Assembly (NCBI GenBank): GCA_964016885.1
Contig: OZ024750.1
Location: 36,270,001-36,334,000 of the forward strand
Reading direction: 5' to 3'
DNA: 64,000 nucleotides
Origin: Eledone cirrhosa
Lineage: Eukaryota
The first letter of the stretch is position 1; each line of letters opens with the position of its first letter. The position numbers and the translations under genes are program-made. Positions 3,715 to 58,481 of the stretch are shown here, in pieces. A model generated the notes under the pieces. The model ran no database searches, had not been told where the DNA came from, and saw only the letters and a list, made by a program, of their open reading frames with translations.

Positions 3715-3989
3715 ATATATATATTTTGGGATTATAATGTCCAGTTACTGTAGGTTCACCAGAGTGAACATTCATTGCATAGTTTACAGTAGATATAGAG
3801 GTGTTGTACTAAGCAGAATGTAATATTAATAATAATAAAATAAAAAGGACAAAGTGTTAGATCTTCATTACGTTTATTGAGGTGTGACCCACGTTTCACG
3901 ATTGATTAGCTCAAGGTTCGATCTATATTGCTCTGACCCGACTCTGGAATCAAAAGCTCATCGGACTTCTGTAACCATAACAGTAACTG

Positions 3990-5118
3990 TATATTACAAT
4001 CCCTATATATATAATATAACCTACAATCTCACTTGGAGCTTACTGTCCAGAGCTAACTCTTACATGGGAGGACGCCGTCCGTGTAACTTATGCTCGGAGG
4101 AAACATTACAAATGCTGTTTTCGAAGGACCAACTCCTAAACAAGAAAGACGAACCGGTAACCGCATGCAAAAATAGATTGCGTAGGACTTACCTTGCCCT
4201 CAAACCCCATAACGACCCGGGTGGGTAGACAAGGGCTGATACCCCCACTTGCCGAATAAGTTAGGGGAAACCCCAGCTTACATAGGTAGATTTATCTCTT
4301 TTCTTTTCTTTTCCTCATTGTCTTCTCCTTCCCCCTGTCTCATCCTATCACTTCCTTCCACCCCCTATTTTCTTCCTCGTCTGCTTTTCCCCTTTCGCCT
4401 ACCCCGATGCAGCCCATCGGGCCTCTGTAGCATCAGTTCCCCCACCCCTGTAATTTTAAGATAGAATTGGCCGAATATGTTTTACTAACTACTTATAGCA
4501 GACATGTTAAACCCCTTTTATTTTTGTATCAGTTCTGGTACTACTCAATTTCTACAAGTTTTTTCTATTCTCAACTTATTAACCTGTAATTTTAAGATAG
4601 CATTGTGATTTTTTTTTTTTTTTTTTTATTCATTTCTCACTATCTAATTTTATATATTTTTTCTTTCTTTCTATTATCTTTTATTGTCTCCTACTCTCAT
4701 TCGATTTACCTATTCTATAACCTCCCTCCTCCACTTCATACACTATCCTTAGAATCTGCTGTATACATATCACTTTCAATGCTTGACCGCTCCACTCACT
4801 CCCCTATTGTTCTACAGGCAAGTTCAGCCACCCCTACCTCCCACCAAATGCCATGATAGACTTATTTGTGTTTACAACAAATTTTAACCAATCCTCTTGA
4901 CAACTACAATCTTCCCATATAAGGAAGTACCCCCTTGACAAGTTCGGCTATTTATTCACCAGGCTAAAAATTCTAATTTAGTCCAGAAATAGCCATCAAA
5001 ACGGCTTGAGCTCTGCCGTCGGGGTCATACTTTTTCCTATTTCCCACTCTACTACTCTAAGTATTGAGTACTCTGGTGCATTATGGTCCATCTGGTTACT
5101 TACCACATTTCCTTTGTT
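3990..5118 (+). mobile_element. PLE 3' fragment: GIY-YIG C-terminus, 3' UTR and degenerate HHR-bearing terminus (family A source)
   Basis: NITYNLTWSLLSRANSY..CNLCSEE..LLNKKDE..C aligns by eye with the 58.7 kb ORF C-terminus. Ends with the family-A tail at (TA)n. Confidence 0.8.
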
Positions 5119-5139
5119 ATATATATATATATATATGTA

Positions 5140-20084: not shown

Positions 20085-20986
20085 AGAATATTTTCAAGAA
20101 AAGATGGTATATGCACACCCACACATTTAAAACCTCCACTTTAGCTAGATCTATGGCCTTTGTGGAACAAATCTGGGATCTGAAGCGGGCTAATATTGAA
20201 TACACACTACAATGGTCCGTGCTAAAATTCACCCATCCATACTGGAATGAAAGACGCCCCTGTGAACTATATTTGGCAGAGGTAATTGAAATAGCAACCG
20301 GAAAGGACCTTCTAAATTCCCAGCACAATAGGGTATTTAATTGCAAACGCAAGGTTCTAAAAACCTTCGCTAAATACAAACCGGTCTAGAACAAGATTCG
20401 ATCCCTAATATCTAGGTTTTACTACATCCTATTTGGTACATTTCCTGTGGCATTTGAACTTTTCAACCCAATGGGTTCAGTAATATTCAAAACAATCTCG
20501 TTTTCTTAATTCCTTTCCTCCTTATCCACTCTACCATACTCTTAATCTCTAACTTATCTTCCTCTGTCCCTCTCTTTATAACTTCTCTAACCTATATATG
20601 GCAAACATCAAAACCTTCACCCAAACCAATGGTCAAAGTATAATTGTTCCACATCACAGATTGATAGTGTGAAAGTCTTTATCCCCAATCCCTCTCCTCT
20701 CTACTATCACACTAACTGACTGTATTTCATTTTATTTTTAGTTTATTTACTTTTTCTTAAAGGAAAATCCCATTGCTGAATTGTACTGCGTAGTGAATAG
20801 TTGACTTCCACTACTCTAAGCTTTCTGATGAAGTGTAATAAATAATTAAGTATTGCATATGATTGAACAATATATATTGTAGTCAGCATATGTAGACAAT
20901 CTATAATAGACACAGAAACATATGTTAAAGCAAATAAATTCCTAATCTACACGCTGACATTTTATTTTTCTTGGTGCAATACCTTA

Positions 20987-21036: not shown

Positions 21037-21040
<4 letters not shown>

Positions 21041-21157
21041 TATAGAAAAGCTTCTACAGGACTAGAACTGTTTCATTCATGAGAAATTATCAGGAAGCCC
21101 CTGATGATTTCTCACAAATGAAACAGTTCTAGTCCTGTTGAAGCTTTTCTATATTAA
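21037..21157. ncRNA. Head-to-head hammerhead pair in a fold-back palindrome
   Basis: Plus strand: CTGATGA-tttctcacaaat-GAAA-cag..ctg-TT-gaagc. Minus strand: gcttc-CTGATAA..GAAAcag..ctgTA-gaagc. Arms about 55 bp. Confidence 0.75.
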
Positions 21158-21254
21158 AACATTTATACTCTGCTATGTATTGAGTACCTTACTTACTGTG
21201 GTTAACCCCGATTGAACCTGGAATAACATATATATATATATATAAATTTTCAAT

Positions 21255-21752: not shown

Positions 21753-21954
21753 TAACGAAGGAAATGTGGTAAGGAACCAGATGGACCATAACGCACCAAA
21801 GTACTCAATACTTAGAGTAGTAGAGTGGGTAATAGGAACGAGTAGGACCCCGACGGCTGAGCTCAAGCCATTTCGACGGCTAATTCTGGACTAATTCAGT
21901 CCAGAATTAGCCGTCGAAATGGCTTGAGCTCAGCCGTCGGGGTCCTACTCGTTC

Positions 21955-21959
<5 letters not shown>
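21753..21959 (-). mobile_element. Family A fold-back hairpin insertion (HHR 3' half)
   Basis: Palindrome 21831-21959 centred on ggact-aattc-agtcc; long arm extends to (TA)n. Confidence 0.85.
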
Positions 21960-22020
<61 letters not shown>

Positions 22021-22030
<10 letters not shown>

Positions 22031-22495
22031 AATGAATAATAACAGGTAGACATCATAAAAAGGTAATTTATTCCGTGTGCTTACAAATGTTTCCACGGTG
22101 GTACTACAGCCTAGTTATGCTATGTGCAAATTTACAAGTATTTGCAGAACTCAAATATCCAATGCTGTGACCACTGTATCCTCAGACCATTCTGCTCTGA
22201 GGATACAGTGGTCACAGCATTGGATATTTGAGTTCTGCAAATACTTGTAAATTTGCACATAGCATAACTAGGCTGTAGTACCACCGTGGAAACATTTGTA
22301 AGCACACGGAATAAATTACCTTTTTATGATGTCTACCTGTTATTATTCATTCTTTATATACACTCCGGAATACAGAAGGATCAGGAACTAAGTTTCTTCA
22401 ACAATTCTTCCATAACTCATAGAGTAACCTCTCACCGTACGTCAACCATATCCAGTGTAGTAATTAACCATTACTACATCTTGGATAATCCTATA

Positions 22496-22500
<5 letters not shown>
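22021..22500 (+). mobile_element. Fold-back insertion with about 165-bp perfect arms containing an HHR
   Basis: About 22021-22186 is the reverse complement of 22196-22360, with a 9-nt loop; long arm continues to (TA)n at 22500. Confidence 0.9.
22193..22304 (+). ncRNA. Type I hammerhead ribozyme with extended stem II, mirrored on the minus strand
   Basis: tgct-CTGAGGA-tacagtggt...accaccgtg-GAAAC-attt-GTA-agca, followed by AATAAA. Confidence 0.85.
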
Positions 22501-22544
<44 letters not shown>

Positions 22545-24039
22545 GTGCTTATCTTCAACTGTACAAAGTGTTCTGGGTGCATTTTCATGGCTTCAGCACT
22601 ACCAATTTATAGAATTGTGAGTGTAATTTATTGTGATACTAATACGTTACAGTGTGTACTGAGTCCATTTTATCATGACACCAGCACTAAAGAATTTATC
22701 ATATTGTTGTATGTGGCCAGATAGAAGTATCCAATCAAACATTGTTTCTGTTGCTAATCTGTAGTGTCCAGTCCCTCACCATGTTTATAGTGTTACAGTG
22801 GCTGTAATGGTGGACAAGCCTTTTGTATTATGGCATATTTTTATACAACTCTCATTCCATTTCCATATAACATAAACATATACAATGAACTTGTATCAGT
22901 TTTCATCTACTAAATTCACTAACAGGCAGTGGTTTGGCAGGGAGTTGCATATGACACACACACATGTATGTGTGTATTTATCCATATATATATATACACA
23001 ATAATGGAATTGTGTTTTGTGAACTAGGTTTATGGGAATCCAAGATTTATGCTTGGGGATCACACCAGATTCCATCAGAGATGAGCAAAGCAACCTTTTG
23101 ATGACAGTTTGATCTCTTAATCTAACCTTTAATATTCATATTCATCTCTACGGATACTGTAATATACATGTTCATACCCAAGACCTTAAAAAAATTCATG
23201 GAACTCATCTCATTATATGAATCTAGTATTCATAACATCTGCTTTTGATGAAGATCCATGTGAAATTCTTCACCATGTTATCTGTAAGCAATCATACATG
23301 CATGTTCACAACTTCACCAACTATAATCACAAGTATCTAGAAATAACTCTAATCGTCACTGCTCGTTCTAGATGAGAATTATGAATTCAGCAATAAAATA
23401 CAAACTGACCCTCAAAAATGTTAACCTACCAAATAAATTCTGCTTAAAGAAGTGAAAACCTATTTAACAATACGATAAAATGTATCATCATCATCATTTC
23501 ATTTTACGTCCGCTTTTCCCTGCTTGCAAGGGTGGGACGGGAACTGATTCTGGCTTGATTTCTACAGCTGGATGCCCTTCCTAACACCAACATCATTTAC
23601 ACTGAGTGTTGGGTGCTTTTTTTGGCCGTGGCACCTCCACGACCACTTTGCAGTGGAATGATATGGACCCCAGTCCCTATCATCTCATTTCTACAGCTGA
23701 GTAAACTGGAGCAATGTGAAATAAAGTGTCTTGCTCAAGGAAACAACACATCACCCGGTCTGAGAATTGAACTCACAACCTTTCGATTGCAAGGCCAATG
23801 CTCTAACCACTAAGCCATGTGCCTCCATTACATGTGAATCTATATTGTGCATGTCACTACTTAAGGGTAGTCCATCTTGTGGTCCTGGTAGACAGGATGA
23901 AGAGGACATTGCCCTGGAGAATAGCAACAGTGACATGTTGGAACATCCATTCCACTTCATGTGGCTCAAACTTCCAGGTAGCTAACTCCCCTCCAATGGC
24001 AAAATAAATTATAAAATACATTTTTCATCAATGGTTCTT

Positions 24040-24790
24040 CTTCTTCTTCACCCTCCTATTCCTGAGAGGGTCATGGGGGCAGTGTCCTTAAACACTCCTC
24101 CCAGCAGGTCCTGTCAAAAACAATTGCCTTCAACTGATCCAACTGGATCTCCAAGCGAGAACAGCTAAGTTCATGGATGTTGTCCAACCACCTTGCTCAA
24201 GGTCTACCACTGGGTCTACTGCCAGTTGGTTTTGCTCATAAAATATGTCCAGCAATTTTTTCCTGAGACATTCTAACTACATGTCCATAATATTGGAGTT
24301 GTGATCGCTCAATTCGGAGAAATAGCGGCTCTACCTGGAGTGACTCTCTGATCTCTGAGCTACGAATCTGTCCAGTAATTCTTTCCTGAGACATTCTAAC
24401 CACATTCCTATAGTATTGGAGCTGTGATCTCTCAATTCAGAGAAGTTGCAGCTCTTCCTGGAGTGGCTCTCTGATCTCCGAGCTACACATCTGTCCAGCA
24501 ATTCTTTCCTGAGACATTCTAACCACATTCCTATAGTATTGGAGCTGTGATCTCTCAATTCAGAGAAGTTGCAGCTCTACCTGGAGTGACTCTCTGATCT
24601 CTGAGCTACGAATCTGTCCAGCAATTCTTTCCTGAGACATTCTAACCACATTCCTATAGTATTGGAGCTGTGATCTCTCAATTCAGAGAAGTTGCGGCTC
24701 TACCTGGAGTGACTCTCTGATCTCTGAGCTACACACTCTATAGAGTAACATTACTCCAAAGACCTTTTGGAGGGACTCCATTTCAACCTC
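24040..24790 (-). repeat. LINE 3' fragment with about 4 x 123-bp tandem amplification
   Basis: Period 123 (24246, 24369, 24492, 24615); single-copy homolog on the plus strand at about 30690-31085. Confidence 0.8.
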
Positions 24791-26331
24791 TGTTCAGCTC
24801 ATCAATTGTTTATTAAATAATTTCATTATTAACTACACTTATCATCTTTAAATTTAACTATAAACACTGAAATGTTTATGGTTAAATTATGGTAATTAAG
24901 ACATTTGAAATTAAATTTTAAAATGATATATATAGAAAACTACAAAGCAAGTGGTTTTCACCATCCTCATCATTACCATTTAATCATTTAACATCCATTT
25001 TTTTCAAACTAGCATGGGTTTGACGAGTTGTCCCATTGTGAGACAAGTCACATCAAGTGACCATGTCTTGCTCATACAGAACCAGTCTTATGATTTTATA
25101 TTATAAAAATGTAAAATTCTTGATTATTTTCAAAATTAATTGAAACACATTGTCAGCATATTCTATTAAAAATATGGTCATGAAAGTATTAAAGGAGCTG
25201 TGTGTTGTTTTGGTAGTAATTGCTTCTGTTGCCAGTTTTGCAAATTATGTGAAATGATAGTGATCAGTTTGAAGTAAATTTAACCATATTTAAAGTAGAT
25301 TAGTCCAGACCAAACACAGAACTACCATTAAAGAAATATAGATAAAAAAGTGCTAAGATTAAAATTGTCTTAGAAATATTTTCATATACTTGTGAGGTTG
25401 AATGGCTCTACAAATTTTGATATTTTCATTAATCATTGAAGCATGTTGTTTATAGCTTTGATGTCTTCAAATGCATCAATTAATCAACAGTTAAGTGGAC
25501 GACACATTCCTTCTATTCACTTTGGTTGATTGAAGCCAACAGAATTCTTATCCCCCCCTCTCCCTCAACACACACATCATCATCATCATCATCATCATCA
25601 TTTTTATGTTTTTCTACACTTGCATGCAATGCTAGTTGCAATATATGGTATCAGAATTGTTTCTACTTTTGGCACAAGGCCAGCAATTACCCCAGTATAT
25701 TACTGGTACTTTATTTTATCGACCCCATAAGGATGAAAGACAAAATAATAATTATTTCTACTTTTGGCACAAGGCCAGCAATTACCCCAGTATATTACTG
25801 GTACTTTATTTTATCGACCCCATAAGGATGAAAGGCAAAATTAACCTTGACAGGATTTGAACTCAGACCGTAAAGGGACGTAACTATGCTAGAAAGCATG
25901 GCATCCAAACCTCCTCTACTGATACTGCCAATAATGACATCTTAAGCCAATTTCTACCTATAAAAAGAATTTAGTAAAATCATCATCATTGTTTAACATC
26001 TGTTTTCTCTACTAGAAAGGGTTGCACATGTCACAGACTGGTCAGTATTTAGTGGAGACTCTGACCTTCAAGTGGGCCAGAAACTGGCATATGTCCCTGT
26101 GCTCTTCAATGTGTACATATGGAAGGCTGATTTCCTACAATAGTCTATCTGCTTTCTCTCTTAACCCTTTAGCATTTAAACCGGCTGTGTCCGGCCAGAA
26201 TTCTCTCACCTCTTTCTGTTCAAACTGGCTGTAACCAGCCGCTTATACTGATGTTAAGGTATTATTCTCAAAATGAATTATATCAAAATCTCCTAGATTC
26301 GATATTATGTGAGATTAAGTCTTTACAATGA

Positions 26332-27191
26332 AAATACAATAGTATATATGGAGTAATGTAAATACTAAAGGGTTGAAATACAATAGTATATATAGAGTAA
26401 TTTAAATACTAAAGGGTTAAAATATAATAGTATATATAGAGTAATTTAAATACTAAAGGGTTAAAATACAATAGTATATATAGAGTAATGTAAATACTAA
26501 AGGGTTAAAATACAATAGTATATATAGAGTAATGTGAATACTAAAGGGTTAAAATACAATAGTATATATAGAGTAATGTAAATACTAAAGGGTTAAAATA
26601 CAATAGTATATATAGAGTAATGTAAATACTAAAGGGTTAAAATACAATAGTATATATAGAGTAATGTAAATACTAAAGGGTTAAAATATAATAGTATATA
26701 TAGAGTAATGTAACTACTAAAGGATTAAAATACAATAGTATATAAGAGTAATTAAATACTAAAGGGTTAAAATACAATAGTATATATAGAGTAATGTAAA
26801 TACTAAAGGGTTAAAATACAATAGTATATATAGAGTAATGTAAATACTAAAGGGTTAAAATACAATAGTATATATAGAGTAATGTAAATACTAAAGGGTT
26901 AAAATACAATAGTATATATAGAGTAATGTAAATACTATAGGGTTAAAATACAATAGTATATATAGAGTAATGTAAATACTAAAGGGTTAAAATACAATAG
27001 TATATATAGAGTAATGTAAATACTAAAGGGTTAAAATACAATAGTATATATAGAGTAATGTAAATACTATAGGGTTAAAATACAATAGTATATATAGAGT
27101 AATGTAAATACTAAAGGGTTAAAATACAATAGTATATATAGAGTAATGTAAATACTAAAGGGTTAAAATACAATAGTATATATAGAGTAAT
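26332..27191. repeat. 44-bp tandem array (about 19 copies) derived from a MITE terminus
   Basis: Unit aaatacaatagtatatatagagtaatgtaaatactaaagggtta equals the end of the TTAA MITE starting at 26161. Confidence 0.95.
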
Positions 27192-29147
27192 TGTTTCTAC
27201 TTTAGGTACAAGGCCAGCAATTACCCAGTGCATTACTGGTACTTTATTTTATCGACCCCGTAAGGATGAAAGGGAAAGTCAACCTCTGCGGGATTTGAAC
27301 TCAGATCGTAAAGGGACGTAACTATGCTGGAAAGCATGGCGTCCGACCCTCTACCGATACTGCCAATCCACCGCCCTAGTATATATAGAGTAATGTAAAT
27401 ACTAAAGGTTAACCCTTAACTTTTGAAACTCCTAAACGGGTTGTAGTGGTGTTGTAGTGACACTTATATATATATAATGTATGTGTGTATGTGTATATAT
27501 ATATGTGTGTGTGTGTATATATATGTGTGTGTGTGTATATATATGTGTGTGTGTCTATATATATATATGTGTGTGTGTGTGTTTATATGTGTGTGTATAC
27601 ATATGTGTATGTGTGTGAGTGTGTGTGTGTGTGTGTTAGGTATGTTAAAAGCCTGGCTGAGCCAATCTCCTCTCTAAGGCTGAACACAGTGAATTTCTTC
27701 CAGAGAAAGTGACAAAGAGAGAGAGTGTGATAGAAAGGAAGTGCGAAAGAGTTATAGAGGAAGAATTGACCCGAGTACTGGACTAGGGCTTTATCAACTG
27801 TGATGGGATGAATGGCAGAGTTGACCTCAGCAGGTTTTAACCCTTTAGTATTCGCATTACTCTATATATGCTATTATATTTTCATGGTAAAGGCTTTACC
27901 TCACATAATTATCTCACATAATATCAAATCTATGAGATTTTGAAAGTATTTATTTTGAGAACAATACCTTAACATCAGTTTGAGCGACCAGTTACAGCCA
28001 GTTTCAACAGAAAGGGGTAGAGAATTCTGGCCGGTTTTGGCCGGTTTGAAGATTAAAGGGTTAAACTGAAAGAGCAGAGAGCTGGAAAAAATACTTCAAA
28101 CCATTCTAACTGAAGTTCAAATAACTCTGCTAATTAGCCACCTCAATGTATTCTATACTAGACATCAATTTAATATCAATATTTTACATATGTTTCAAAG
28201 AATGAAAAAATAGTTTTTCCTAATTAATTCTTCCATTTTTTTTTCAATGAATTTTAATTTTGGTATTTAAATAAAGTTCATGGCCTTGTGGTTAGGGTGA
28301 TTCGCTTAGGATCATAATGTCATAGGTTCAATTCCTGGATTGGTTTGTGTGTTGTGTTCTTAATCAGAACACTTCATTTCACATTAGCTGAGGCTTTAAC
28401 TTTACAATGGACTGGTGACCTGTCTAGGGGGGATTCTTGTACTCTCAGTCACTTAATGCCACAGATATTGAGATAAGTGCCAGCTTGATCAGCCTCTGGG
28501 CTTGAGACAGACTTTAACCCTGTGATGGACTGGTATCCTATCTAGGGAGAAGTTGTGTACTCTCAGTTACTTCATACCACAGAAACCAGCATAAGCACCG
28601 GCCTGATGTACCTCTGTGGTACATCAGGCCGGTGTGTTAGGTATGTTAAAAGCCTGGCTGAGCCAATCTCCTCTCTAAGGCTGAACACAGTGAATTTCTT
28701 CCAGAGAAAGTGACAAAGAGAGAGAGTGTGCTTGAGGCAGTCTTTAACATTGCAATGGACTGGTGTACTGTCCAGGAGGGAACCTTGTTCTTATACAACT
28801 TTTGATATAAGTTTCAGAGTATTAAGATTATTTCATTTACTTTCCAATCCCAACAATCGGTAGAGCTAACAGATCTCTATGTAATATATATATATATATA
28901 GTAATAATAATAAATTTGAAGGCTAAAATCCAAAGAGGATAAATATATATCAAATATATAAGAACCCTAGTGGTTTTGTCTTTGTGTGTAATTGTTCTCA
29001 TCGCTCCACATAATGACGTATTATCTTCGCTTTTTTCCGTTCATTGCCAGGCAACATCTTCATGAATCAAAGTATCGTCTTCCTGTTTTCCTTCGGTTGC
29101 AACGTTTTTCGAAATATTTACTTCTGTGTTCACAGATTGATTTTTTT

Positions 29148-29198
29148 AGTTTCAGAAGATCCCGTTAAGGGTGAAAGCAGCGATTCTTTGCTTAAACT
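29148..29198 (+). ncRNA. Hammerhead-like motif with variant core CAGAAGA
   Basis: agttt-CAGAAGA-tccc gttaa gggt-GAAA-gca..tgc-TT-aaact; second copy at 56138. Confidence 0.7.
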
Positions 29199-29226
29199 TT
29201 AATCGGTTATTTAATATATATATATA

Positions 29227-29420
29227 TATAGGAACCAGTAAGACCCCGACGGCTGAGCTCAAGCCGTTTCGACGGCTAATTCTGCAGAATTAGCCGTCGA
29301 AACGGCTTGAGCTCAGCCGTCGGGGTCTTACTGGTTCCTATTACCCACTCTACTACCCTAAGTATTAAGTACTTTGGTGCGTTATGGTCCACCTGGTTCC
29401 TTACCACATTTCCTTCGTTA
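29227..29420 (+). mobile_element. Family A fold-back hairpin insertion
   Basis: Perfect palindrome about 29227-29342 centred on ttctgcagaa; GAAAC-ggcttgagctcagcc-GTC; long arm to (TA)n. Confidence 0.85.
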
Positions 29421-30194
29421 TATATATATACACACACACATATACAGAGAGTGAGAGAGAAAATTCTTTAGAAATAACACAAATAATTATATATTTATTT
29501 CAACAATGGAAAAAGAAAGAAATTAGACTAAACTCTAGGTTAATATTCCCAGAGTGTCAGAAAATACCAACCTCTGTGAAACCTATTTAGAAGTTTATAG
29601 CATATATATTTCTTCACAAGGAAATATTATCGCTATACAACCGACAATTAATTTCTATTTTTCTATTAAACAATTGGTGATATGTTCTATAAATTAATGT
29701 AACATATCTAAAAAGGAAAACAGGCAAAATAATGTCAATATTTTTTTTTTTTCATTGTCTTTAAAAGCTATTTTAACTTGATAACTGTTGTTACTAAAGT
29801 AAATTGAAAACAATTTCTTTCAAGCTGTCTTCTGAAACATAACATTTTTTTGTGTTTATTTCCTTATCTTCATTATATAAGTGAATGAATTACTGAGACT
29901 GCGCTGCCTCTAAGTGTGTCTAGCTGTGTGTGTATCTAGGTATATGTGTGTGTATCGATCTTTGTGTTGTGTATAGCTAGGTGTGTGTGTGAGTGTCTCT
30001 CGGTGTTTTGTATGTGTATCTAGATATGTATGTGTGTGTTTCTGTATGCATGTACATACACATGCACACATACACACATAAACATACATCAATTCATGCA
30101 TACATACACACACATGCACACACAGATACATACTTATGTACAGATACACACACACACACACACACACACACAACATTCACATGCATACAAACAG

Positions 30195-30231
<37 letters not shown>

Positions 30232-30689
30232 CCTGTGGCAAGAAAACAGTGTAATTGGAATTCATGAAGAAAAAATTTGTGAGGTGATCTCTGATATGTA
30301 ATAAAAATGAACATCAGATGACGTAAGAAACCTGCAATCAGTCATATCTATTGGAATAAAAAAACAAAAACTTTTTTCATCATTGAAATTCGCTTTAGCT
30401 GTCTTTGTTTACACTTTACCATTTAAACCAGCCACATCTGACCAGAATTATTTCACCTCTTTCTGTCCAAACTGGTTGTAACTAGCTGCTGATACTGTTG
30501 TTTAGGTATTGTTCTCAAAATAAGTATCAAAATCTCATAGATTCGATATTATGTGAAGATAATTATGTGGGATAAAGTGTTTACCATGAAAAACAATAGT
30601 AAATGTAGAGTAATGTAAATGCCAAAGAGTTTAAACTGATGTTCTCTTCAGATCTGTATTTTCTTGGTGATATAGTGAGACAGCACTGA

Positions 30690-31085
30690 TTTTCATTCGA
30701 GCTATGGGGTTCCTCCTAAGGGTCTTTGGTGTAACGTTACTTGATAGAGCACAGAGCTTGGAGATCAGAGAATCACTCCAGGTAGAACAGCTACTTCTCT
30801 GAATTGAGAGATCACAGCTCTGATACTATGGACATGTGGTTAGAATGTCTCAGGAAAGAATTGCTGGATAGATTTTAGGGGCAAAACCAACTGGCAGGAA
30901 ACCCAGGGGTAGACCTCCAAGCAAGATGGTTGGATAACATCCATGAGCTTGGCTGGTCTTGCTTGGAGATTCAGCCGCATCAGTGGGAGACAGTTGCTTT
31001 TGACAGGACCCGCTGGAAGGAGTGTTTAAGGACTTTGCCCCCATGACCCCCTCAGGAATAAATGGGTGAAGAAGAAAGAAGAAGA
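30690..31085 (+). mobile_element. RTE-like LINE 3' fragment with (gaa)n tail
   Basis: Encodes degenerate IERSQL..YGHVVRMSQER..GRP..RW; homologous to the 24.0-24.8 kb region. Confidence 0.75.
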
Positions 31086-31516
31086 CACAAGGCAGTGTAT
31101 TGGCAGAGTCATTCGAACATCAGATAGAATGCTTTTGTAGTATTTGTTCCAGCTCTCTGCTCTCAAATCCTGCCGAGGTCATCTTTGCCTCGGCAGGATT
31201 TGAGAGCAGAGAGGTCATCTTTGCCTTTCATCCATTTAAGGTTGATAAAAAAAGTACCAGTCTATGTCTCTTTCTCACTTCCATTCTCTCAACCTCTATC
31301 CTTCTCAGGAAAAAGTCTGCTGTATTTGGATCTAGAGAGGAGATGGGCTTTGCCAAGTTTAAAAAGTTCTCTGGAAACACTGTATATCAATGTAGTACCC
31401 CTACGACTCCTTCAGGAGTTAGGGAACCATTGATAGACACATACATGTCTTTGTTTTGAATGTTTCCTGCAGAACATTTCTGTATTATTTTAATATAGAC
31501 ATATGATGTATTATTT

Positions 31517-31744
31517 TTAACCCTTTAGCATTCACATTACTCTATATATACTATTATATTTTCATGGTAAAGGCTTTATCCCGCATAATTATCTCACATA
31601 ATATCGAATCTATGAGATTTTGAAAGTATTTATTTTGAGAACAATACCTCAACATCAGTATGAGTGGCCAGTTACAGCCAGTTTCAACAGAAAGAGGTAG
31701 AGAATTCTGGCCGGTTTTGGTCAGTTTGAACATTAAAGGGTTAA
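31517..31744. mobile_element. piggyBac-type MITE (other copies about 26161-26377, 27837-28064, 30414-30634)
   Basis: TTAA-cccttta...taaaggg-TTAA termini, about 225 bp, four homologous copies. Confidence 0.8.
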
Positions 31745-31856
31745 ATAAACTTCTGATATTAGAATGAGCTAACTATGCTATTTCAAATTATAAACCTATT
31801 TTACAAAAGTAGGGTTTGATCGAATGAAGTCAGGTTACACCATAAATGAACTTTAT

Positions 31857-31948
31857 TGCATATGACAATTGTATCGATATCAATCAGCTTCTGGTACAAT
31901 CATAATGTTCAAGGCCCATCTCTGCACTGACTTCTCTTCAGATGTGTA
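31857..31948 (-). ncRNA. Degenerate hammerhead ribozyme
   Basis: acacat-CTGAAGA-gaagtcag..ctgattgatatc-GATAC (for GAAAC)-aatt-GTC-atatgc-AATAAA. Confidence 0.55.
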
Positions 31949-32644
31949 TTTGTAGGTGCATGTTACAGCTACCTTAACCTTGGAGTACACCGCAGAAGCT
32001 GATTTAATCTCAATTTTTTTCTATCCTTGTTTTACTTGTGAATTGTCATTCAAGCGTGGAAAGCTGTCTGTGAAAGCGATGATGATGATCATGAAGTAAA
32101 ACTACAACAGATGAGAGGAATTAGAGAAGAGCTTGGGTTTAACTTGAGTTTCTCTGTGTTAAATGAGCTCAAGCTTTTAATTATCATCATCACTACCAAA
32201 TCACTAAGACGAAGGTACGTGATAAGTGGAGAGATGCTGTGCTGAGAAGGACCCATCCAAAAATGCAAGCATGGAAAAGAAAAGCGGACGTAAATCAATG
32301 TTGATTATGTGTATATATATATATATATATATTTATATGTAATCAATAACAGTCGATTCGTTTGCAATTATGCAGCTCTGTTCACATGCCAACACAAGAG
32401 CAAGAATGAAGGGTTCATTCTACTGACATGGCTATAAAATGGAGGCTTGTTTGCATAATTGCAAATGAATCGAATGTTATTATTAATATTCGAAAAACTC
32501 AGATTACATTTATTTAGAAATAAATATATATATATATATATCAATATATATATATAATATATTTATATATATAATATATATCTATATAATATATATAATA
32601 TATATATAATATATATATGATATATATATATATAATATATCTAT

Positions 32645-33231
32645 CTAGGGCGGGTAAAATTCCCGAGATCCATGGACGAGTTCTCTCCAGCGGTCTCTGT
32701 CCCTCATTATTGCTGCCATGTCCTGCATCTCCAACAGACCAGTGTCTGTCCTTAGGGCATCAACATACATCAACCTTGGTCTTCCACTTCCAGTGTGTCC
32801 AGCTAACCTCAGTCTCCTCTGTGTCACTTTGGAGCTGACTTTTGGGAGGCTCCCATACAGCTCTGAGATTTTCATTCTCAGTGTATACTGATTAATGTTC
32901 AGAGCCATCCTCAGCATTCTTATGTAGCACTCATCCAACATCTGAGTGAGTTTCTTGGTCAGTGTCCAAGTCTCAGACCCGTACAGCAGCACAGACTCCA
33001 CTACAGCAATAAAGAGGCGGATTTTGAGAATGTTGAGGAGCCAGAGGGGATCACTAATGTAGGTGGGAAGCCGCTAGAATTGGTTGAGGACTTCCTGTAT
33101 TTGGGAGCAAAGATTGGGAATACGGAAGATGATGTGGTTGAGAGGAAGAGCAAAGCGTGGGCAGCGTGCCACAGCTTGAGATCGGTGTGGAAGTCGGACC
33201 TTCGTAAAGACCTGAAAATCCGCCTCTTCAT
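32645..33231 (-). mobile_element. RTE-like LINE 3' fragment with inverted 5' part, inserted in (TA)n
   Basis: Minus 32645-33001 reads ESVLLYGSETWTLT..RRLRLAGH..GRP. Plus 33002-33231 reads VEDFLYLGAKI..RKSKAWAAC..VWKSDL..LKIRLF. Confidence 0.9.
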
Positions 33232-33546
33232 ATAATATATATAATATATATATATATAATATATATATAATATATATATATAATATATATATATATTATA
33301 TATATATATTATATATATATATATTATATATAATATATTATATATATATATAATATATATATATAATATATATATATATATAATATATATATATATAATA
33401 TATATATATATATAATATATATATATATAATATATATATATATATATAATATATATATATATAATATATATATATAATATATATATATATTATATATATA
33501 TATATTATATATTATATATATATATATTATATATTATATATATATA

Positions 33547-33579
<33 letters not shown>

Positions 33580-33899
33580 ATATCATCATCATCACAGTTT
33601 TACGTCCGTTCTTCCACGCTAGCATGGGTTAGACGGGTTGTCCTGTTGTGGGCAGTAGCCGCTCGTCGGCTGACCATGCTCATACGGACACTGATTCTGG
33701 CTTGATTTCTACAGCAGGATGCCCTTCCTAACACCAACCTCATTTACAGTGAGTGCTGGGTGCTTTTTTGCCGTGGCACCTCCACGACCACTTTGCAGTG
33801 GGAGGGGGTGGGGGCATATTCTCTATATGCTTCAATTCCAGCTTGTAACCATGGGGAGGAGGGGGTCAGGTCGGGTCTTCTGTATTACTGCGTGATGCC

Positions 33900-34200
33900 A
33901 GAGGTCACAGTCTGTGTCATCGCCTTTGAGAGGTCTAATTGGGTTAGGTTGGCTTTTATCACCTCATCCCAGGTCTTCTTGGGTCTCCGCGGCTTCGATC
34001 GACTTCTAGTTCTCTGCACCTTTTTATGCAGCTGTCATCCTTTATACCCATCACATGTCTATACCAACACAATCTCTTCTCCTGCACACAACATTTGAAA
34101 CCTCTTATGCTCAGTCTCTCTCTCAATTCGTTTATGCTTTGCCATTTGCATATGTTACTATTACACATCCATGGGAGCATGCAGGCTTCATTTCTTTCTA
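33900..34200 (-). pseudogene. RTE LINE 3' fragment
   Basis: [27 protein letters not shown]. Confidence 0.85.
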
Positions 34201-34269
34201 AAATAAAGTACCAGTAATGTACTGGGTAATTGATGGCCTTGTGCCAAAAGTAGAAACAATTATTAATAA

Positions 34270-34304
<35 letters not shown>

Positions 34305-34309
<5 letters not shown>

Positions 34310-34610
34310 GAGTTCAAGCCCCAACGGCTGAACTCTTGCCGTTTCAACAGCTAGTTCCAAACTGCAGTAAACTTTTGTTAGACCATTACTCACCAGGGTA
34401 CTCAATACTAGGGGTAGTAGAGTGTGGTAACATGAAAGATTTGGGACCACGATGGTTGAGCACTTGCAATTTCAACAGCTAGTTCCAAACTAGCTGTTGA
34501 AACAGCAAGAGCTCAACTTTCATGGTCCCAATTCTTTCATATTACCATATTCTACTACCCCTAGTATTGAGTACTCTGGTGAGTAATGGTCTAAGAGATT
34601 TTTACTGTAT
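34305..34610. mobile_element. Family A-related symmetric fold-back plus a third partial arm
   Basis: Inverted arms about 34358-34606 around ctagttccaaactag; 34305-34362 repeats the inner arm. Confidence 0.75.
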
Positions 34611-35049
34611 CCATTTATATATATACATATATATATATATATATAGCTTAGTGGTTAGAGCATTGGGCTTGCAATCGAAAGGTTGTGAGTTCAATTCTCG
34701 GACTGGGTGATGTGTTGTTTCCTTGAGCAAGACACTTTATTTCACGTTGCTCCACTTTACTAGGCTGTAGAAATGAAATAATAGGGACTGGGGTCCATAT
34801 CCTTCCACTGTAAAAGTGGTCGTGGAGGCGCCATGGAAAAAAAGCACCCAGTACTCACTGTAAATGAGGTTGGTGTTAGGAAGGGCATCCAGCTGTAGAA
34901 ATCAAGCCAGAATTAGTTCACGTATGAGAAAAACAAGGTCAGCTGACCGGACACTGCCCACAACAGGACAACCCTCTAACCCATGCTAGTGTGGAAGAAC
35001 AGATGTAAAACGGTGATGATGATGATCATGATATATATATATATTTATT

Positions 35050-35250
35050 TACGAGAAACAGCTGAAAAGTTCATAGGCTGACCAAGATATTCTCATGGAA
35101 TGGCCAAATGAGATTTAATTTCCTCATAGACACTGGAAAGAAATAATGCAATTATTAATACGAAGAGTTGAAATTTATGCATGCAAAATTTCACAGCTCT
35201 AGCATCACTCCTTCATAATCCGCCTATGAACTTTTCAGCCAATCTTCATA
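35050..35250. mobile_element. Tc1/mariner-type MITE
   Basis: TIR gctgaaaagttcataggc / gcctatgaacttttcagc with TA-cgag..ca-TA ends. Confidence 0.75.
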
Positions 35251-38200
35251 TTTCCCCTGATGCTCCAATAATTCTGTCGAATCCAATGGCATTTGATTCC
35301 TGAGAAAATAATTCTAGTCATTTTATGCTGCACATCTTGAAAATATGTGAGCCATATTTCTAAACAATTCAGAGAGGAGATTCTATGGGAAAGAGAATTT
35401 CTCTACAGTTTAACAGTGCCAGCTAGTGATTCTGATCAAAGAAAAATACTTTCATTGATAGACCTTTATGCTAAAATGTTATTGCATCATACATAATCAA
35501 TACAATAAATGTTGTCATTGTTATTTTTGTAGTTATACTCCCTGTATTAACAAACATTGAATACGTTGGTAAATAAAAAAAAAATATGATCGGAAATATA
35601 AAGATTGCTAGATACTTAAATATGATACCATGCCAGAATACATTGTTAATATAAGATAGTAAAAGGATGTTCTATATAATTCTTTGATGTACCAAGATTG
35701 CAGCAGAGTCTGCCACCTTATCATCTTGGTAAGAAGAACTACAAACATCATGGTAAATTCTTAGGACAATATATTCAATAAAACTGTAGGGTGGCCATGA
35801 TTAAATGCTAATAAAACAATAACATTTGATTCTCTGCATCAATGTATTAGACTTTTTTCTTTTACCCGTTCTGTAACAGGAAGATCAAACAGACCATAGC
35901 ATCGGTGTAATGCACAAGTTGTCATTATTGGTTACACTTCAAATGCAGCTCACTAACCATATCCTGTGAATATTAAAGTGTCTAGAAATGCTTGTGACAC
36001 AAAATACACTGCACAAATTTAAAAAAATAGTCACATCAGGATTTCAGCCAAAAAAAAAAAATGGTGAAAGATTTTATTTTGAGAATTCAAACTTTAAAAA
36101 AGAGATGTGAAAGTAATAACATACCAGCACAAAACAGAGATCAAACAAGAATTATCACAACACCAGTAAAAATATGAACAACATATTTCAGGATATAATT
36201 ATAACAAAACAGCAATTTAACACTCTATACAACACTTCTTCACAAAAATATGGAAAATGTAACACCACTAACATTGCTTATAAATACTGCCTATATTAGG
36301 CACATGGCTTAGTGGTTAAAGCATTGGCCTTTCAATCGAAAGATTGTGAGTTCAATTCTCAGACCGGGTGAAGTGTTGTTTCCTTGAGCAAAACACTTTA
36401 TTTCACATTGATCCAGTTTACTCAGCTGTAGAAATGAGATGATAGGGACTGGGGTCCATATCATTCCACTGCAAAGTGGCCGTGGAGGTGCCATAGCAAA
36501 AAAGCACCCAGCCCGCACTGTAAAGTGGACGTGAAGGTGCCACGGGAAAAAAAAGCACCCAGCACTCACTGTAAATGAGGTTGGTGTCAGGAAGGGCATC
36601 CAGCTGTAGAAATCAAGCCAGAATCAGTTCCCGTCCCACCCTTGCAAGCAGGGAAAAGCGGACGTAAAATGATGATGATGATGATGATCACTAAATCAAT
36701 CAACATCTAAAACAGATAATAAAAGAGAAGGCAGTCTATGTGGCTTGATGACCTTCTAGAAATAGCAACTTGTCTCCCACCATCCACCAAAAAGCAGCTT
36801 AAACCTTTTTCACGTGATATAAAATAGAAAATTAAAAGTTATGTTATGATTAATAACATATAACACAGCTCCATCCAAAGCAACACCTTCTAGTCTTAAC
36901 CTGAAAATGTTAAAAACACTGTTGTGAAACATAAATAGCATTATAAACATCCATCAAATTAAAATGACTTCCGTCACAATCATCATCATCACCGTTTTTC
37001 GTCCATTCTTCCACGCTAGCATGGGTTAGACGAGTTGTCCTGTTGTGGGCAATGCCAGTCAAGGTGACCATGTCTTGCTCATACAGAACTGATTTTGGCT
37101 TGATTTCTACAGCTGGATCCCCTTCCTAACACTAACCTCATTGCTAGTGAGTACTGGATGCTTTTTGTCATGACACCTACACGACCACTTTACATTGTGG
37201 ACTGGGTGCTTTTTTGTCGTAACACCTACACAACCACTTTACAGTCGGAGTGTGTGTGTGGGGGGGGGGGGATACGGTCTATATACTTCAGCTTTGGCTT
37301 GTACCTGTGGGAAGTCAGGTCTTCTGCTTAACGCCAGAGGTCTCGGTCCTGTGTCATTGCCTTTGAGCAGTGCAATTGGGCTAGATCAGCTTATATATTA
37401 TTACTAGCTCACAAACCCTTCCTAAATACTAGGCTTCAGCAATGCAAAGCAGGACATGGAACATCCTACTAATGTAGGATCTAATAGCCATAAGGATCCA
37501 ATAAAACTTTCAAAAATAAACCTTAAAAATGTAATCATTAGATTTATCAAAATATTTATTCTACCATGAACTCTCTATATAGCCCCATCTGATTCCACAG
37601 ATCACATCTATATTCATTAAACTATGGTTGTGTAGTTAAGAACTTTGCTTCAAAACTACATGGTTTCTAGATGAATTCCACCGTGTGATATCTTGAGCAA
37701 TTATCTTCTACCATAGTTTTTGGTGAATCATTACATTGTAAGAGAAATGGATAGCTGGAAACTGAGTAGATTTTCATCAGAGGTACAATTCCTGTTTTTG
37801 TGTGGTAGGTGGATTGGCAGTATTGGTAGAGGATCGGACACCGTGCTTTTCAGCATAGAGTTACGTCCCTTTATGGTCTAAGTTCAAATCCCGCCGAGGT
37901 TAACTTTGCCTTTCATCCCTGCGGGGGTTGATAAAATAAAGTACCAGTAATGCACTGTGGTTTAATTGCTGGCCTTGTGCCAAAAGTAGGAACAATTATT
38001 ATAGTTTACGTTATAACCTGGTCCTCAGGGCCTTTCAGAAAAAAAAATACTCCGTTTCTGTCCCTTGTCAACAGACTAATTAACATAAGAATAGAGAACA
38101 CACACTCACATACATAGAAATATACACAGGCACACATACAAACATACACGTTAAGGCATCTGATAGAATGCTTTATGGTGTTCGACCCACCTCATTGTGT

Positions 38201-38277
38201 GTTCTGAGTTCAAATCCCACCATGGTCAACTTTGCCATTCATCCTTCCGAGGTTGATAAAAAAATTACCAGTCCAGA

Positions 38278-39573
38278 TGGGCGGAGGTTTATATCATGAT
38301 GATGCACTTTTTGAAGTAACTAATCATAATAACAGCGCCCTTAACAGAAAAAAGAAAATTATAACTGACTTGTTTAATAATTATGGCCTTAAACTTGAAA
38401 TTGAAAATAATAATAAAATAGTTAATTTCTTAGATATAACATTAAACCTTAAATCTGGCCTTTACTATCCATTCCATAAATTAAATGTAAACTTTAATTT
38501 TGTTAGTTTCCATTCAAACAACCCTAGAAATGTTAAAAAGGCTATAGTTAACAGTGTTCAGCAAAGAATCTCTAGACTCTCTGCTAATAAGGACATTTTT
38601 GATAAGGCTAAATACTTAAACGATGCATTAAATAGAGCAGGTTACCCTGATAAAATTGAATATATGGATAAAAATATATATACACATACATCTTATGATA
38701 ATATCCATAGCATAAATCATAGAACTACACCAAATCAATCATATAATAGATATAACTCCTATAAAACCAATAAGCCTAGTAAAAGAATCTGCTCTCATTC
38801 TATTTTATGGTATTCTCCACCATTGTTTCTTGGAATTAGGAAAAGTTTAGTCCACCTATTCTTCAATGCTCTTGATAAATGTTTCCCGAAAAAGCATAAA
38901 TATAGTAGAATTTTTAATAGACATACAATTAAACTCTCATACTCAACCACTTTGAATATTGCCCAAAATATAGTTAAAATTAATAATAGAAATCCAGGAA
39001 CTATTCATATGGAATTAACCACTAACGATAATCAGCCAATCACTATTAATCAACTCCCCAATTAACAACAATTAAACTATGAAAACTATCAACAATCAAA
39101 CTATGAAAACAAAGTGGCATCACTCTAATAACAGCGGAGGTAATTGCAATTGTAAAAATAGTTACTCTTGCTCATTAAATAATAACTGTCTTGACTGTAA
39201 TCTAGTTTACAAATGCATTGTCAAAACCAAAGATAAGTCTTATAATTATATAGGTGCTACTACCTCTAAATTTAAGGAAAGGTGGTATAATCACTGCCTC
39301 ACGTTTAAGAGAGAGGATAAGAGCTTTAGTTCTGCTTTATCTGAATTAATTTGGTCACTTAAAAATAAAAGTATAAAATATTCTCTTTCTTGGCAAAAGC
39401 TCTCTAACGCTTTACCTTATATACATTCTTCCATTTCCAAGGGTTGTAACTTATGTACCTCTGAAATTTTCTATATTCTTAAGAATAGGAAAATAATTAT
39501 TGATAAAAAGTCTGAGATATTTAATTCATGCCTCCACCGTTTCTCAAAATCTTTCCATAGAGTCTTTAGTTAG
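38278..39573 (+). pseudogene. 5'-truncated, disrupted Penelope-like ORF (RT C-terminus + GIY-YIG)
   Basis: GGLYHDD, VNFLDITLNL, HSNNP, WYSPP, CNCKNSYSC, LVYKC..NYIGAT..FKERWYNH and CNLC; split into two ORFs at about 39065-39079. The upstream part of the called ORF is SINE sequence. Confidence 0.92.
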
Positions 39574-40375
39574 ATTTTAAAATAGCTTACATAATTAATA
39601 GATATTCCTTTATATATAGTTTTAATTCTCACATCCACTTATTCTTGAACACATTTAAACATTTTCAATTAAACGTTATATATATATAAAAAAACCAATA
39701 AAATAAGATAGGTATTATTCCTTTATATTTTAAAGAAAATCTAAACTATACAACTAAATAACTTTACAACTAAATAACTAATTTCTTCCTTCATTATTTT
39801 CTCCGATTATTTTCCCTCTCTTATAATATTCCTTCAGTATAATTTTTCATCTACTTTAAATTTAGGTTCTATCTAAATAAGTTAATTTTAATAATTTGAT
39901 AAATTCGGCTATAATACATACATTTTTTTCTTTGTAAATAATTATACAAAGTTTTAATATCATCTACTTTAAATAACATTGTTGAATTGATAATTTTTTT
40001 AACATTGATAATTATCTCCTTTCTAAAATAAATAATTTATCACGTAATATTAAAGCATACTTGACTATATATTTAAAAAGATATATATATATATATATAT
40101 CAACCATATCAACTATTAAACACTTTCTATTCAATAATTTCAATATCTAAGTATACATAATAAAGGATAGCTTACCTACAAATTCTATAACCCAAATTTT
40201 TTCCCCTTTATTATTCTATCTCCATAATATTATTCCTGTCTTAACAGAATATTTTTTCCTGATACAATATATACTTTTGATTTAATACCTATCTATAATG
40301 ATCATAAGGGAAATGAGGACTGAATAACGCTCAATTTTTGTTTTGTTTTTTTCTGACCAATCAAATTACACTATA

Positions 40376-41545
40376 TCTGTATATATATATATAAAATTAC
40401 GTATGTGTGTGTGTGTGTCTGTGTGTCACCTATAAGGGCCTACATCTTACGACTGATTTTCATGAAACTTTACAGGCTCATAGATTAGTAATCGGGGAGT
40501 GTTTTTTTTATATATTAACGTGCCGTTTTTTTTATTCCGGGGTCATTCTGCAGATAAAAATCGATGGGGGGGGGGGTCACCTTTTTTTAGGTATCGAAAA
40601 ATAAGATTTTTGGCTCTAGCTCCCACATTTTGCCACCAATTTCGTTCAAATGTTAAAGCAAAATAGAATTTATCATTGCATATCCTGTAATGGCTTTATA
40701 TTTTGCATTTGTTGTTCAGCGACGGCGTGGCAGCCACTTAAATATTCAAAAATACCACTTTTAGACTCAAATTTCCACTTTTTCGGCTCTACCTCCCACA
40801 TTAATCAACCTACTTTGTTCAGATTTTACACTACGCTAGATCTGATTATTTCACGTCTTAAAGTGGCTTTACATTTTGAATTTTTTGTTCAGGAACGGTG
40901 TGGTAGCCGCTTAAATATTCGAAAATACCACCTTTTCGGCTCTAGCTCCCACATTTTTCCACCGATTTCCTTCAAATTCGAAACTTCGGCTCCACCTCAC
41001 ACATAAATCAATTTATTTGGTTAAACTTTTATACTACGATAGAACCTATCATTGCACATCTAATAGTAGCTTTACACTTTGCATTTTTTGTTCAGGGACG
41101 GCGATCTATCATTAGCTCCCACATTTTTCAACCGAATTCATTCAAATTCGAAACTTCGGCTCCACCTTACATATAAATCAATTTATTTGGTTCAACTTTA
41201 TACTACGATAGAACCTATCATTGCACATCCTATAGTTGGTCAAATGCAAAACGATGGCCCTGACGTCGTCTGAGTTTTTAGTTGTGTATTTGAGAATTCA
41301 TCGGTTTCCAATCAAGTAGCGTGAAGACATTTGGCTTAGTGTTAGAGGTCATTACCTCCCTCCCCCAGCATGCCCCTTCGTCAGTCACCCGCGTTTCTCA
41401 GTGATAGAGGTCATCACCACCCTCCCCCGCATGGCCTGTGTGTGGCCATAGATGAGTCATCGAGAAGCAGTCGCTAAGATCAACACCTTTTCATCAAAGC
41501 AGATATTATTTTACCTACCCAGGCAACGCTGGGTACTGCTGCTAG
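40376..41545 (+). mobile_element. Non-autonomous Helitron-like element
   Basis: 5' A|TC, internal diverged tandem repeats, 3' hairpin tacccag-gcaacg-ctgggta followed by CTAG|T. Confidence 0.7.
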
Positions 41546-42182
41546 TTTTAAATAATTTATGAACGTTTAAGCCAACTATAATGTCCCTCTCCCCAATCAA
41601 TTAATGCCCTTGCATGCTGACGTTTTTCTTGTCATATGCCTGGTGGCCATCAATCTGTCCAGTTTGTCTACCAGCATTTCAAGAAAAAATTATACATTTT
41701 CTCTGAGAACATGTTTTGCTTTATGCTATACATAAAACTTTGTATCTTCGAAATATCATCATCATCATCATCATCATTTTACGTCTGCTTTCCCTGCTTG
41801 CAAGGGTGGGATGGGAACTGATTCTGGCTTGATTTCTACAGTTGGATGCCCTTTCTACCACCAACCTCATTTACAGTAAGTGGTGGGTGCTTTTTTTTAC
41901 CATGGTACCTACACGTCAACTTTACAGTGTCATAATATGGACCCCAGTCCCTATCATCTCATTTCTGCAGCTGAGTAAATTGGAGCAATGTGAAATAAAG
42001 TGTCTTGCTCAAGGAAACAACACATCACCCGGTCTGAGAATTGAACTCAAAACCTTTTGATTGCAAGGCCAATGCTCTAATCACTAAGCCATGTGCCTCC
42101 ATATATATAATGAAATAGAGATGATATAAAGTATATATTTTTCGTTTATTGCTAATATTATTATCATTATATATATATATAT

Positions 42183-42383
42183 AACGAAGGAAATGTGGTA
42201 AGGAACCAGGTGGACCATAACGCACCAAAGTACTCAATACTTGAGGTAGTAGAGTGCGTAATAGGAACCAGTAAGACCCCGACAGCTGAGCTCAAGCCGT
42301 TTCGGCGGCTAATTCTGGACTCAGTCCAGAATTAGCCGTCGAAACGGCTTGAGCTCAGCTGTTGGGGTCTTACTGGTTCCTAT
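42183..42383 (-). mobile_element. Family A fold-back hairpin insertion
   Basis: Palindrome centred on ggact-c-agtcc (about 42322); TA on both sides. Confidence 0.85.

Positions 42384-58105: not shown

Positions 58106-58158
<53 letters not shown>

Positions 58159-58449: not shown

Positions 58450-58481
<32 letters not shown>

Follow-up and report, generated by a model that had tools for sequence, protein, structure and literature searches.

The present report deals with a family of fold-back insertions occurring in a window of 64,000 nucleotides (nt) of the Eledone cirrhosa genome (contig OZ024750.1, positions 36,270,001 to 36,334,000, forward strand), and with the Penelope-like element (PLE) from which these insertions derive. 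Positions within the element are numbered from the predicted cut of its hammerhead ribozyme, the first base after the cut being +1 and the C before the cut 0.

Fold-Back Insertions and Unfolded Parent in the Window

Three lopsided hairpins, A1, A2 and A3, are present where the initial annotation of the window had placed them, with long arms measuring 136-142 nt and short arms measuring 57-66 nt (Table 1). The outer ends of all three run into (TA)n tracts, at +99 in the long arms and at +20 or +21 in the short ones. The turns fall between -36 and -44, a stretch that the predicted fold of the unfolded parent assigns to the 3' strand of its extended stem II. In A3, the single extra base at the turn (42322) reads G on the sense strand of the long arm and is either cap-derived or templated.

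The unfolded parent (4921-5119) closes a PLE fragment and is preceded by the decayed end of an open reading frame (ORF) and by a 3' untranslated region (UTR); a tblastn match to the PLE ORF occurs at 3875-4210, and the segment 4011-4475 shares 75-78% identity with long copies of the element. The hammerhead of this parent had been described in the initial annotation as degenerate, which is correct for the GAAA box, mutated in this copy, but not for the core UUGANAA, which is a conserved U3-A8 variant and not the result of simple decay. Four variants shared by the two arms of a hairpin had also been considered as private to their locus. Among 79 hairpins, three of the four are subfamily alleles (ggtcCtact at 23 loci, tactCg at 25 and cagcTgt at 23), and only gaaaTggc is rare, occurring at a CpG site in 3 of the 79 loci and on both arms in 1.

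Table 1. Coordinates of the PLE-derived features of the family in the 64,000-nt window.
Feature	Position	Strand	Remarks
Decayed C-terminus of Hydra-type PLE ORF (endonuclease end)	3875..4228	+	Matches the end of the intact L061 ORF
PLE 3' UTR (part of the pseudo-long terminal repeat, pseudo-LTR), partly decayed	4229..4928	+	
Unfolded type I hammerhead (predicted)	4929..5025	+	Predicted cut between 5020 and 5021; stem I 5' strand ~4929-4934; core TTGACAA 4935-4941; long stem II; stem III
Initiator-like motif TTAGTC	4978..4983	+	A at 4980 (-40), putative capped RNA start
79-nt tail between two putative reverse transcriptase (RT) start sites	5041..5119	+	+20 = 5040; +99 = 5119
A1 long arm	21753..21894	-	-42 to +99 of the PLE ribozyme/tail region
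A1 short arm	21894..21959	+	-44 to +20/+21; extends 2 nt past the long arm in the 5' direction; 1-nt microhomology
A2 short arm	29228..29284	-	-36 to +20
A2 long arm	29285..29420	+	-36 to +99; blunt junction without spacer
Compound fold-back of the oldest subfamily, older relative of A1-A3	34301..34591	.	73-75% identical; arm starts -31 to -40
A3 long arm	42182..42321	-	From the A of the initiator-like motif (-40) to +99
A3 short arm	42323..42383	+	-40 (or -42 with a variant template) to +20

Abundance of the Hairpins in the Genome

In an evenly spaced sample of 96 stretches (960 kb) of the 3.0 Gb source genome, 34 copies of the tail were found, and a separate parse yielded 43 events, 21 of which were head-to-head pairs. 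Exact patterns searched genome-wide gave at least 27,576 short-arm ends, defined as (TA) joined to the +20 end, and 13,713 matches for junctions with an arm reaching -40, where a locus may count twice; the reversed control gave 0 in both searches. Raw restriction-site-associated DNA (RAD) reads from three runs of a single study cover the interval from +99 to -33 at a depth of ~8,000-11,000x, compared to 100-350x just upstream of -45 and 20-60x in the ORF. Loose (TA)n ends pile up at +99 and +20 in these reads, and joints between opposite strands are present in the three runs, which indicates that the fold-backs of the family, for which a check in raw reads had been proposed at the outset, are not assembly artefacts. 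No read set bridged the window's own copy end to end, the flanking repeats having drawn the reads.

That the hairpin is a self-propagating non-autonomous element copied as a whole, either a miniature inverted-repeat transposable element (MITE) or an element resembling the short interspersed nuclear elements (SINE-like), or else an artefact of assembly or amplification, appears hardly credible. Some junctions recur exactly (A3, L025, L034), and the mini-hairpins far outnumber the ORF copies in the raw reads, as judged from the above depths in reduced-representation data, both of which would suit such an origin. However, the junctions are heterogeneous, in keeping with the fresh junction at each locus supposed by the initial annotation, and the recurring ones stand on different subfamily backgrounds. 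Fold-back joints are present in the raw reads, and 13 of 16 long copies have a mini-hairpin that is at least as close to them as the nearest other long copy, so that each autonomous subfamily seems to have made its own mini-hairpins. The insertions have neither the one shared internal junction nor the symmetric terminal inverted repeats of a MITE, their arms being unequal, while a target site duplication, which is fixed in a MITE, is not readable in (TA)n. The exclusion of a MITE by the first description is upheld.

The Autonomous Element and Its Relation to the Hairpins

One copy, L061, is an intact element with a 787-codon ORF (stop to stop) that has 528 homologues at E<=1e-20. It consists of an inverted arm from -493 to +20 and of a direct partial tandem running from -703 through a full unit to +99. 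In the direct part, the 787-codon frame is followed by ~1.2 kb of 3' UTR and by a second ribozyme before the +99 end is reached; the unit measures 3,557 nt. A partial tandem (pseudo-LTR), an inverted 5' copy and a tail at one end are therefore all present in this single insertion. Read by eye, the ORF contains a YRDD motif and a VIY...YIG stretch, as found in a PLE-type RT followed by a C-terminal GIY-YIG-type endonuclease; these domain names rest on motifs because Pfam scans of the PLE ORFs, including L061, returned 0 families. Motifs of the Hydra type occur as SDKTG (DKG changed to DKT), CNCPDRSIC (CxCX5C linker), CNLC (CxxC) and CKH (CxH). As regards the RWK motif and the lack of a CCHH finger, which also characterize the Hydra clade, L061 has RWI and other copies have RWR codons at the former, and one Cys was seen, by eye only, inside the VIY...YIG stretch. 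With respect to the target, TATATA follows the +99 end in 119 of 142 ends (ten commonest classes listed), and ATA follows +20 in 128 of 143 hairpins.

According to the match of its motifs, (TA)n targeting and ribozyme to the clade described in PMC8557442, the family is assigned from its sequence to the endonuclease-bearing (EN+) Hydra-type PLEs. The DKT motif, the CxCX5C linker, the CxxC and CxH motifs, the C-terminal endonuclease, the hammerhead and the (TA)n targets are common to both, whereas members of the clade are generally <3 kb (PMC8557442) and the present family stands apart by its longer unit, its ribozyme with a U3-A8 core and its long stem II. The PLE origin that the initial annotation had attributed to the hairpins is upheld. 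At another locus (L063:1046-3366), long ORF pieces with, by eye, the look of a hAT-type transposase lie upstream of the PLE insertion. Between 22 and 62% of the sampled words of the L061 element are present in the runs X4, X6 and X7, which come from other organisms, so that close relatives of the family exist in other species.

Copies with arms of 0.2-2.9 kb (L061, L062, L063, L081, L145) have the same +20 and +99 ends as the mini-hairpins, which are the shortest class of insertions of this Hydra-type PLE. The +20 end remains unchanged between inverted arms of 60 nt and of 2.9 kb, which is more in line with the second fixed RT start site of PLEs (PMC11167929) than with the chance closure on TA microhomology proposed in the initial annotation.

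Some variants of this architecture were also encountered. Inverted arms end at +99 rather than +20 in L260, L269, L271, L274, L279, L280, L256 and L049; in L256 and L280 the direct arm ends at +16 to +20, so that the two start sites can swap sides, and L049 is a symmetric +99/+99 hairpin. Template jumps from an RNA 5' end (+1 or -34) to internal positions of the ORF occur at L252:1709 and L280:1709 (reverse-strand positions) and at ~1925 in L256. Two of these independent loci land on the same base, +326, which may represent a recurrent RNA 3' end, and the third lands on an A-rich end near +545.

The Hammerhead Ribozyme

The minimum free energy fold of the ribozyme region of L061 is a three-way junction of the type I hammerhead, with a long stem II. 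The core reads UUGANAA in most subfamilies, N7 being G, U, C or A depending on the subfamily, and the U3-A8 variant of the hammerhead is known from other work (PMC4209133); the ribozyme of the family is a predicted type I hammerhead of this variant. Searches against Rfam gave no hammerhead match for L061, with two chance hits only, and no hammerhead among the best 150 of 237 rows for the window, which were dominated by (TA)n microRNA matches. The fold z-scores are weak, except for the parent copy of the window (-3.0). A subfamily with the core CUGAGAA (L181, L233), in which C3 opposite A8 forms a mismatch, also has related mini-hairpins. The mini-hairpins hold the 3' half of the ribozyme only, the 5' strand of the parent's stem II being missing from their arms.

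Structure of the Junctions

Junctions were studied in 248 distinct tail copies, 143 of which passed the parser as hairpins, including 75 chosen regardless of their junction. The 105 copies dropped had no short arm, a low score, an arm extending >57 nt upstream or an insert >25 nt, or were symmetric +99/+99 hairpins (5 copies). Of 150 arm ends, 115 fall at -30 to -47, within the 3' strand of stem II, and the clustering that the initial annotation had asked to be checked is real. Its conclusion that both arms come from one template or master is likewise supported by the subfamily-diagnostic sites, which agree between the arms in 73-79 of 79 hairpins; of the rare variants, 65 are confined to a single arm and 5 are shared by the two, a distribution that mutation after insertion would produce. 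Microhomology at the 47 junctions devoid of insert averages 2.3 nt, versus 0.66 nt in a random-join null, of which 0 of 2000 draws reach the observed value.

According to the model first put forward for the window, a single cDNA primed at +99 is arrested in stem II, folds back to serve as its own template and is closed at +20 by TA microhomology. Besides the clustering of the junctions and the agreement of the arms at subfamily sites, the long arm extends further 5' in 21 of the 75 junction-unbiased hairpins, as such a model allows, and self-priming has been proposed for PLE palindromes in 2013 (PMC3846280), so that the idea, of which the initial annotation knew no description, is not new. This model is nevertheless largely refuted and has become very improbable. 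In a single-cDNA fold-back, the copied arm cannot extend further 5' than the first arm, but the short arm is the one extending further 5' in 41 of the 75 hairpins, with 13 ties. When a lead of at least 5 nt is considered, the short arm prevails in 21 cases and the long arm in 12, and among kilobase-scale copies the +20 arm exceeds the other one by 51 nt (L062) and by ~1,100 nt (L145). The fixed +20 end, the untemplated G found also 5' of short arms (7 cases) and the nature of the arms, which are perfect inverted copies of the 3' strand alone, speak equally against it. Finally, 30 copies were picked by their ORF start, 4 of which were short template-jump or truncated products. Among the remaining 26 long copies, 3 end downstream of the upstream, complete ribozyme and 23 reach it, and all 23 read through it to 5' ends located between -67 and beyond -1,390, which shows that stem II is no general roadblock. 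By comparison, 87 of the 103 terminal arms that reach -30 stop by -47.

It is also quite improbable that snap-back or longer palindromes came first and that later deletions at an unstable centre generated both the clustering and the two-way asymmetry. Perfect palindromes are unstable, and microhomology at the junction is typical of deletions too. However, the youngest copies, which are 98-100% identical to L061, exhibit the same pattern, and deletions would account neither for a G added specifically at -40 nor for pairs of arms that both end at the scissile bond, next to untemplated A or T.

Probable RNA Ends Recorded at the Turning Points

As judged from sequence, the turning points likely mark where the RNA begins or is cut by the ribozyme. 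Read on the sense strand, where only purines can be scored at this position, the untemplated base 5' of arms ending at -40 is G in 14 cases and A in 3, the G occurring on 7 long and 7 short arms, with L169 having it on both. Control positions with a pyrimidine upstream gave G in 8 cases and A in 33 (Fisher p ~1e-5 versus -40), and the uncapped +1 site gave G in 4, A in 9 and T in 13. In L1 and SVA, an untemplated G is accepted as the trace that a copied cap leaves behind (PMC4859970). A count by eye of 100 listed -40 junctions gave the 14:3 ratio again, on data that overlap with the former and are not independent.

The -40 position is the A of a motif T(C/T)AGT(C/T), kept in all subfamilies examined, and this motif resembles the initiator consensus of animals. 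In the oldest subfamily, a remodelled stem II places the motif in a predicted bulge, where it is still present, and the arm ends peak at -39 to -41 in 21 of 50 among the matches listed, ~7 of the 50 listed arms being stray matches at -30; 2 arms lie further upstream. A promoter made of an initiator and a downstream promoter element (DPE) has been located inside the pseudo-LTR of Penelope from D. virilis (PMC2377424). In the present family, matches to the consensus of the DPE and of the motif ten element (MTE) were judged by eye and are not claimed. A splice acceptor at the AG (-40/-39) was rejected, since the arms retain this AG.

A second, minor group of turning points coincides with the predicted cut site of the ribozyme. 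The pattern for tiny hairpins around +1 has 553 matches; 20 of the first 21 loci listed were analysed and 19 were parsed. In 11 of these both arms end at the cut, and in 16 one arm or both do so; the untemplated bases are mostly A or T, and G is not in excess. An arm ends at 0 or +1 in 7 of the 75 junction-unbiased hairpins, and in L252 and L256 the template switches at +1 to another RNA stretch, entered at its 3' end, which is A-tailed in one of the two. The cut site represents a known kind of RNA end, and its association with the same symmetric hairpin supports run-off as the general cause of the turning points. In addition, +1/+1 pairs make up a large proportion of these hairpins, which suggests that a single RNA molecule usually serves as template for both cDNAs.

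Twin Priming as the Probable Origin of the Hairpins

The parent element, the outer ends fixed at +99 and +20 in (TA)n, the positions of the junctions, their microhomology and their untemplated bases are all observed, and the explanation that we favour, and regard as rather probable, is that the hairpins result from twin priming, i.e., from two separately primed cDNAs which both terminate by run-off at one common RNA 5' end before being joined head to head. The RT-endonuclease, probably as a dimer, would nick both strands of the (TA)n target, one target end priming a cDNA at +99 and the other at +20. On RNAs starting just upstream, both cDNAs would run off the 5' end within 60-140 nt. Usually the RNA would begin with a capped start close to -40, at the initiator-like motif; in a few percent of cases it would begin at +1, where the hammerhead cuts. 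The 3' ends of the cDNAs would then be trimmed slightly and joined via 1-6 nt of microhomology or untemplated fill, and long read-through RNAs would give the same architecture with kilobase arms. Transcripts from a promoter buried inside stem II of the hammerhead could not self-cleave.

Twin priming might also be combined with another cause for the pile-up at -40, namely that the RT stalls at the protein-bound ribozyme domain of the copy engaged in ribonucleoprotein (RNP) assembly. Such a roadblock, which we hold to be unlikely, explains why most terminal arms stop whereas the upstream ribozyme is read through in every case, as well as the lack of long copies starting at -40, and it finds some support in the PAc protein, which binds near the ribozyme and assists its cleavage (PMC11167929). 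It does not predict an excess of G at -40 but not at +1, nor a peak that tracks the initiator-like motif when stem II is remodelled, and the stronger GC-rich stems I and III and the lower part of stem II are traversed before the stop.

Several points weigh against run-off at a capped start. Both the RNA start site and the cleavage are deduced from DNA sequence. A full-length transcript from -40 should sometimes yield a long copy starting there, but this is the case for none of the 26 with an ORF; the -40 RNA must accordingly be a short one, originate from terminal pseudo-LTRs or be loaded at its 5'-proximal site only. Since many arms run on to between -41 and -47 (at most -57), transcription would have to start over a range of positions. 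In the young subfamily a TATA-like TATTTAAA lies 29 nt upstream, but older subfamilies do not conserve it, and it was set aside as a TATA box. The cap test comprises 17 arms, partly from loci selected for reaching -40, and the 23 read-through copies, all members of the youngest subfamily, may over-represent processive events. Which arm was originally the longer could also be obscured by deletions that affect the centre of a palindrome once it is inserted. The more comprehensive proposal, that PLEs integrate by programmed twin priming on one RNA, that the mini-hairpins form a fossil library of 5' rapid amplification of cDNA ends (5'-RACE), that a capped promoter resides inside stem II and that hammerhead-cleaved RNA is reverse transcribed and integrated in vivo, has in our opinion about an even chance of being right.

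Other Repeats of the Window

A further lopsided hairpin in (TA)n (21037-21240), of a sequence family other than that of A1-A3 and probably from another PLE family, carries CTGATGA...GAAA on its direct arm and turns just 5' of the core, not in stem II; its tail contains a AGTATTGAGTAC-like stretch resembling the family of A1-A3. A near-perfect hairpin with 168-bp arms (22019-22363) directly follows the (TA)n tract closing A1, and one of its arms runs on in the manner of the lopsided hairpins. The inverted repeats at 3255-3346 and 5230-5580, centred on or close to (TA)n, correspond to a tail-to-tail arrangement of other repeat ends. Additional PLE ORFs or fragments of other families occur at 58718-60646, 38208-39573 and 20042-20383, with 37-48% identity between them (tblastn), the first one being located between 656-nt inverted arms rich in simple repeats (58030-58685 and 63132-63787).

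Comparison with Known Systems

The complex insertions of EN+ PLEs comprise a pseudo-LTR, an inverted 5'-truncated copy and a tail at one end (PMC8557442, PMC3846280), and they share with the present family the head-to-head inverted arms, one of which has no tail, the palindromes or overlaps at the junctions and the partial tandems, as in L061. They differ by a tail of 30-40 nt, instead of 79 nt here, and by the dominant product, which is here a 200-nt hairpin in tens of thousands of copies. To account for such insertions, these two papers invoke endonuclease resolution or self-priming on an antisense template, whereas the present data favour two primings on the sense RNA.

In the target-primed reverse transcription carried out in vitro with PAc (Poseidon of Anolis), the tail corresponds to the stretch bounded by two internal RT start sites, cleavage and extension take place on both target strands, and a dimer is predicted (PMC11167929, Frangieh et al. 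2024). The two systems have in common two RT start sites downstream of the ribozyme that bound the tail, the use of both strands and an AT-rich target. In the available text of PMC11167929, the two sites are not linked to the two arms of one inverted insertion; moreover, no RNA reads ended at the ribozyme cut and cleavage was dispensable in vitro, whereas a class of insertions ends here exactly at the cut. In the open-licence literature, no description was found that ties two RT start sites to the two arms of one PLE insertion, or that reads cap or ribozyme-cut ends from PLE junctions.

Twin priming of L1, reportedly described by Ostertag and Kazazian in 2001, is said to involve two target ends that prime two cDNAs, the joining of which by microhomology results in an inversion. 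The priming of two cDNAs and their joining by microhomology resemble what is proposed here, but the second priming of L1 is reportedly opportunistic and the two parts barely overlap, whereas the second end is here fixed at +20 and the same stretch is copied twice, giving a palindrome. The non-LTR retrozymes (bioRxiv 10.64898/2026.07.22.740005) are also short non-coding PLE derivatives related to the pseudo-LTR ribozyme. They consist, however, of direct tandem units each with a complete hammerhead, an organization not found in the present hairpins, which are inverted single units with the 3' half of the ribozyme only, seemingly remade at each insertion; neither 'hairpin' nor 'palindrom' occurs in the main text of that preprint.

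Both the element and its architecture are of a kind already known, and the value of the family lies in the mechanism, the origin of the tandem and inverted insertions of PLEs and the role of the hammerhead having been named as open questions (PMC8557442). If twin priming is correct, thousands of natural integration products would discriminate it from self-priming, and the family would locate a promoter and reveal the use of cleaved RNA, while L061 would offer an intact, recently active element for biochemistry.

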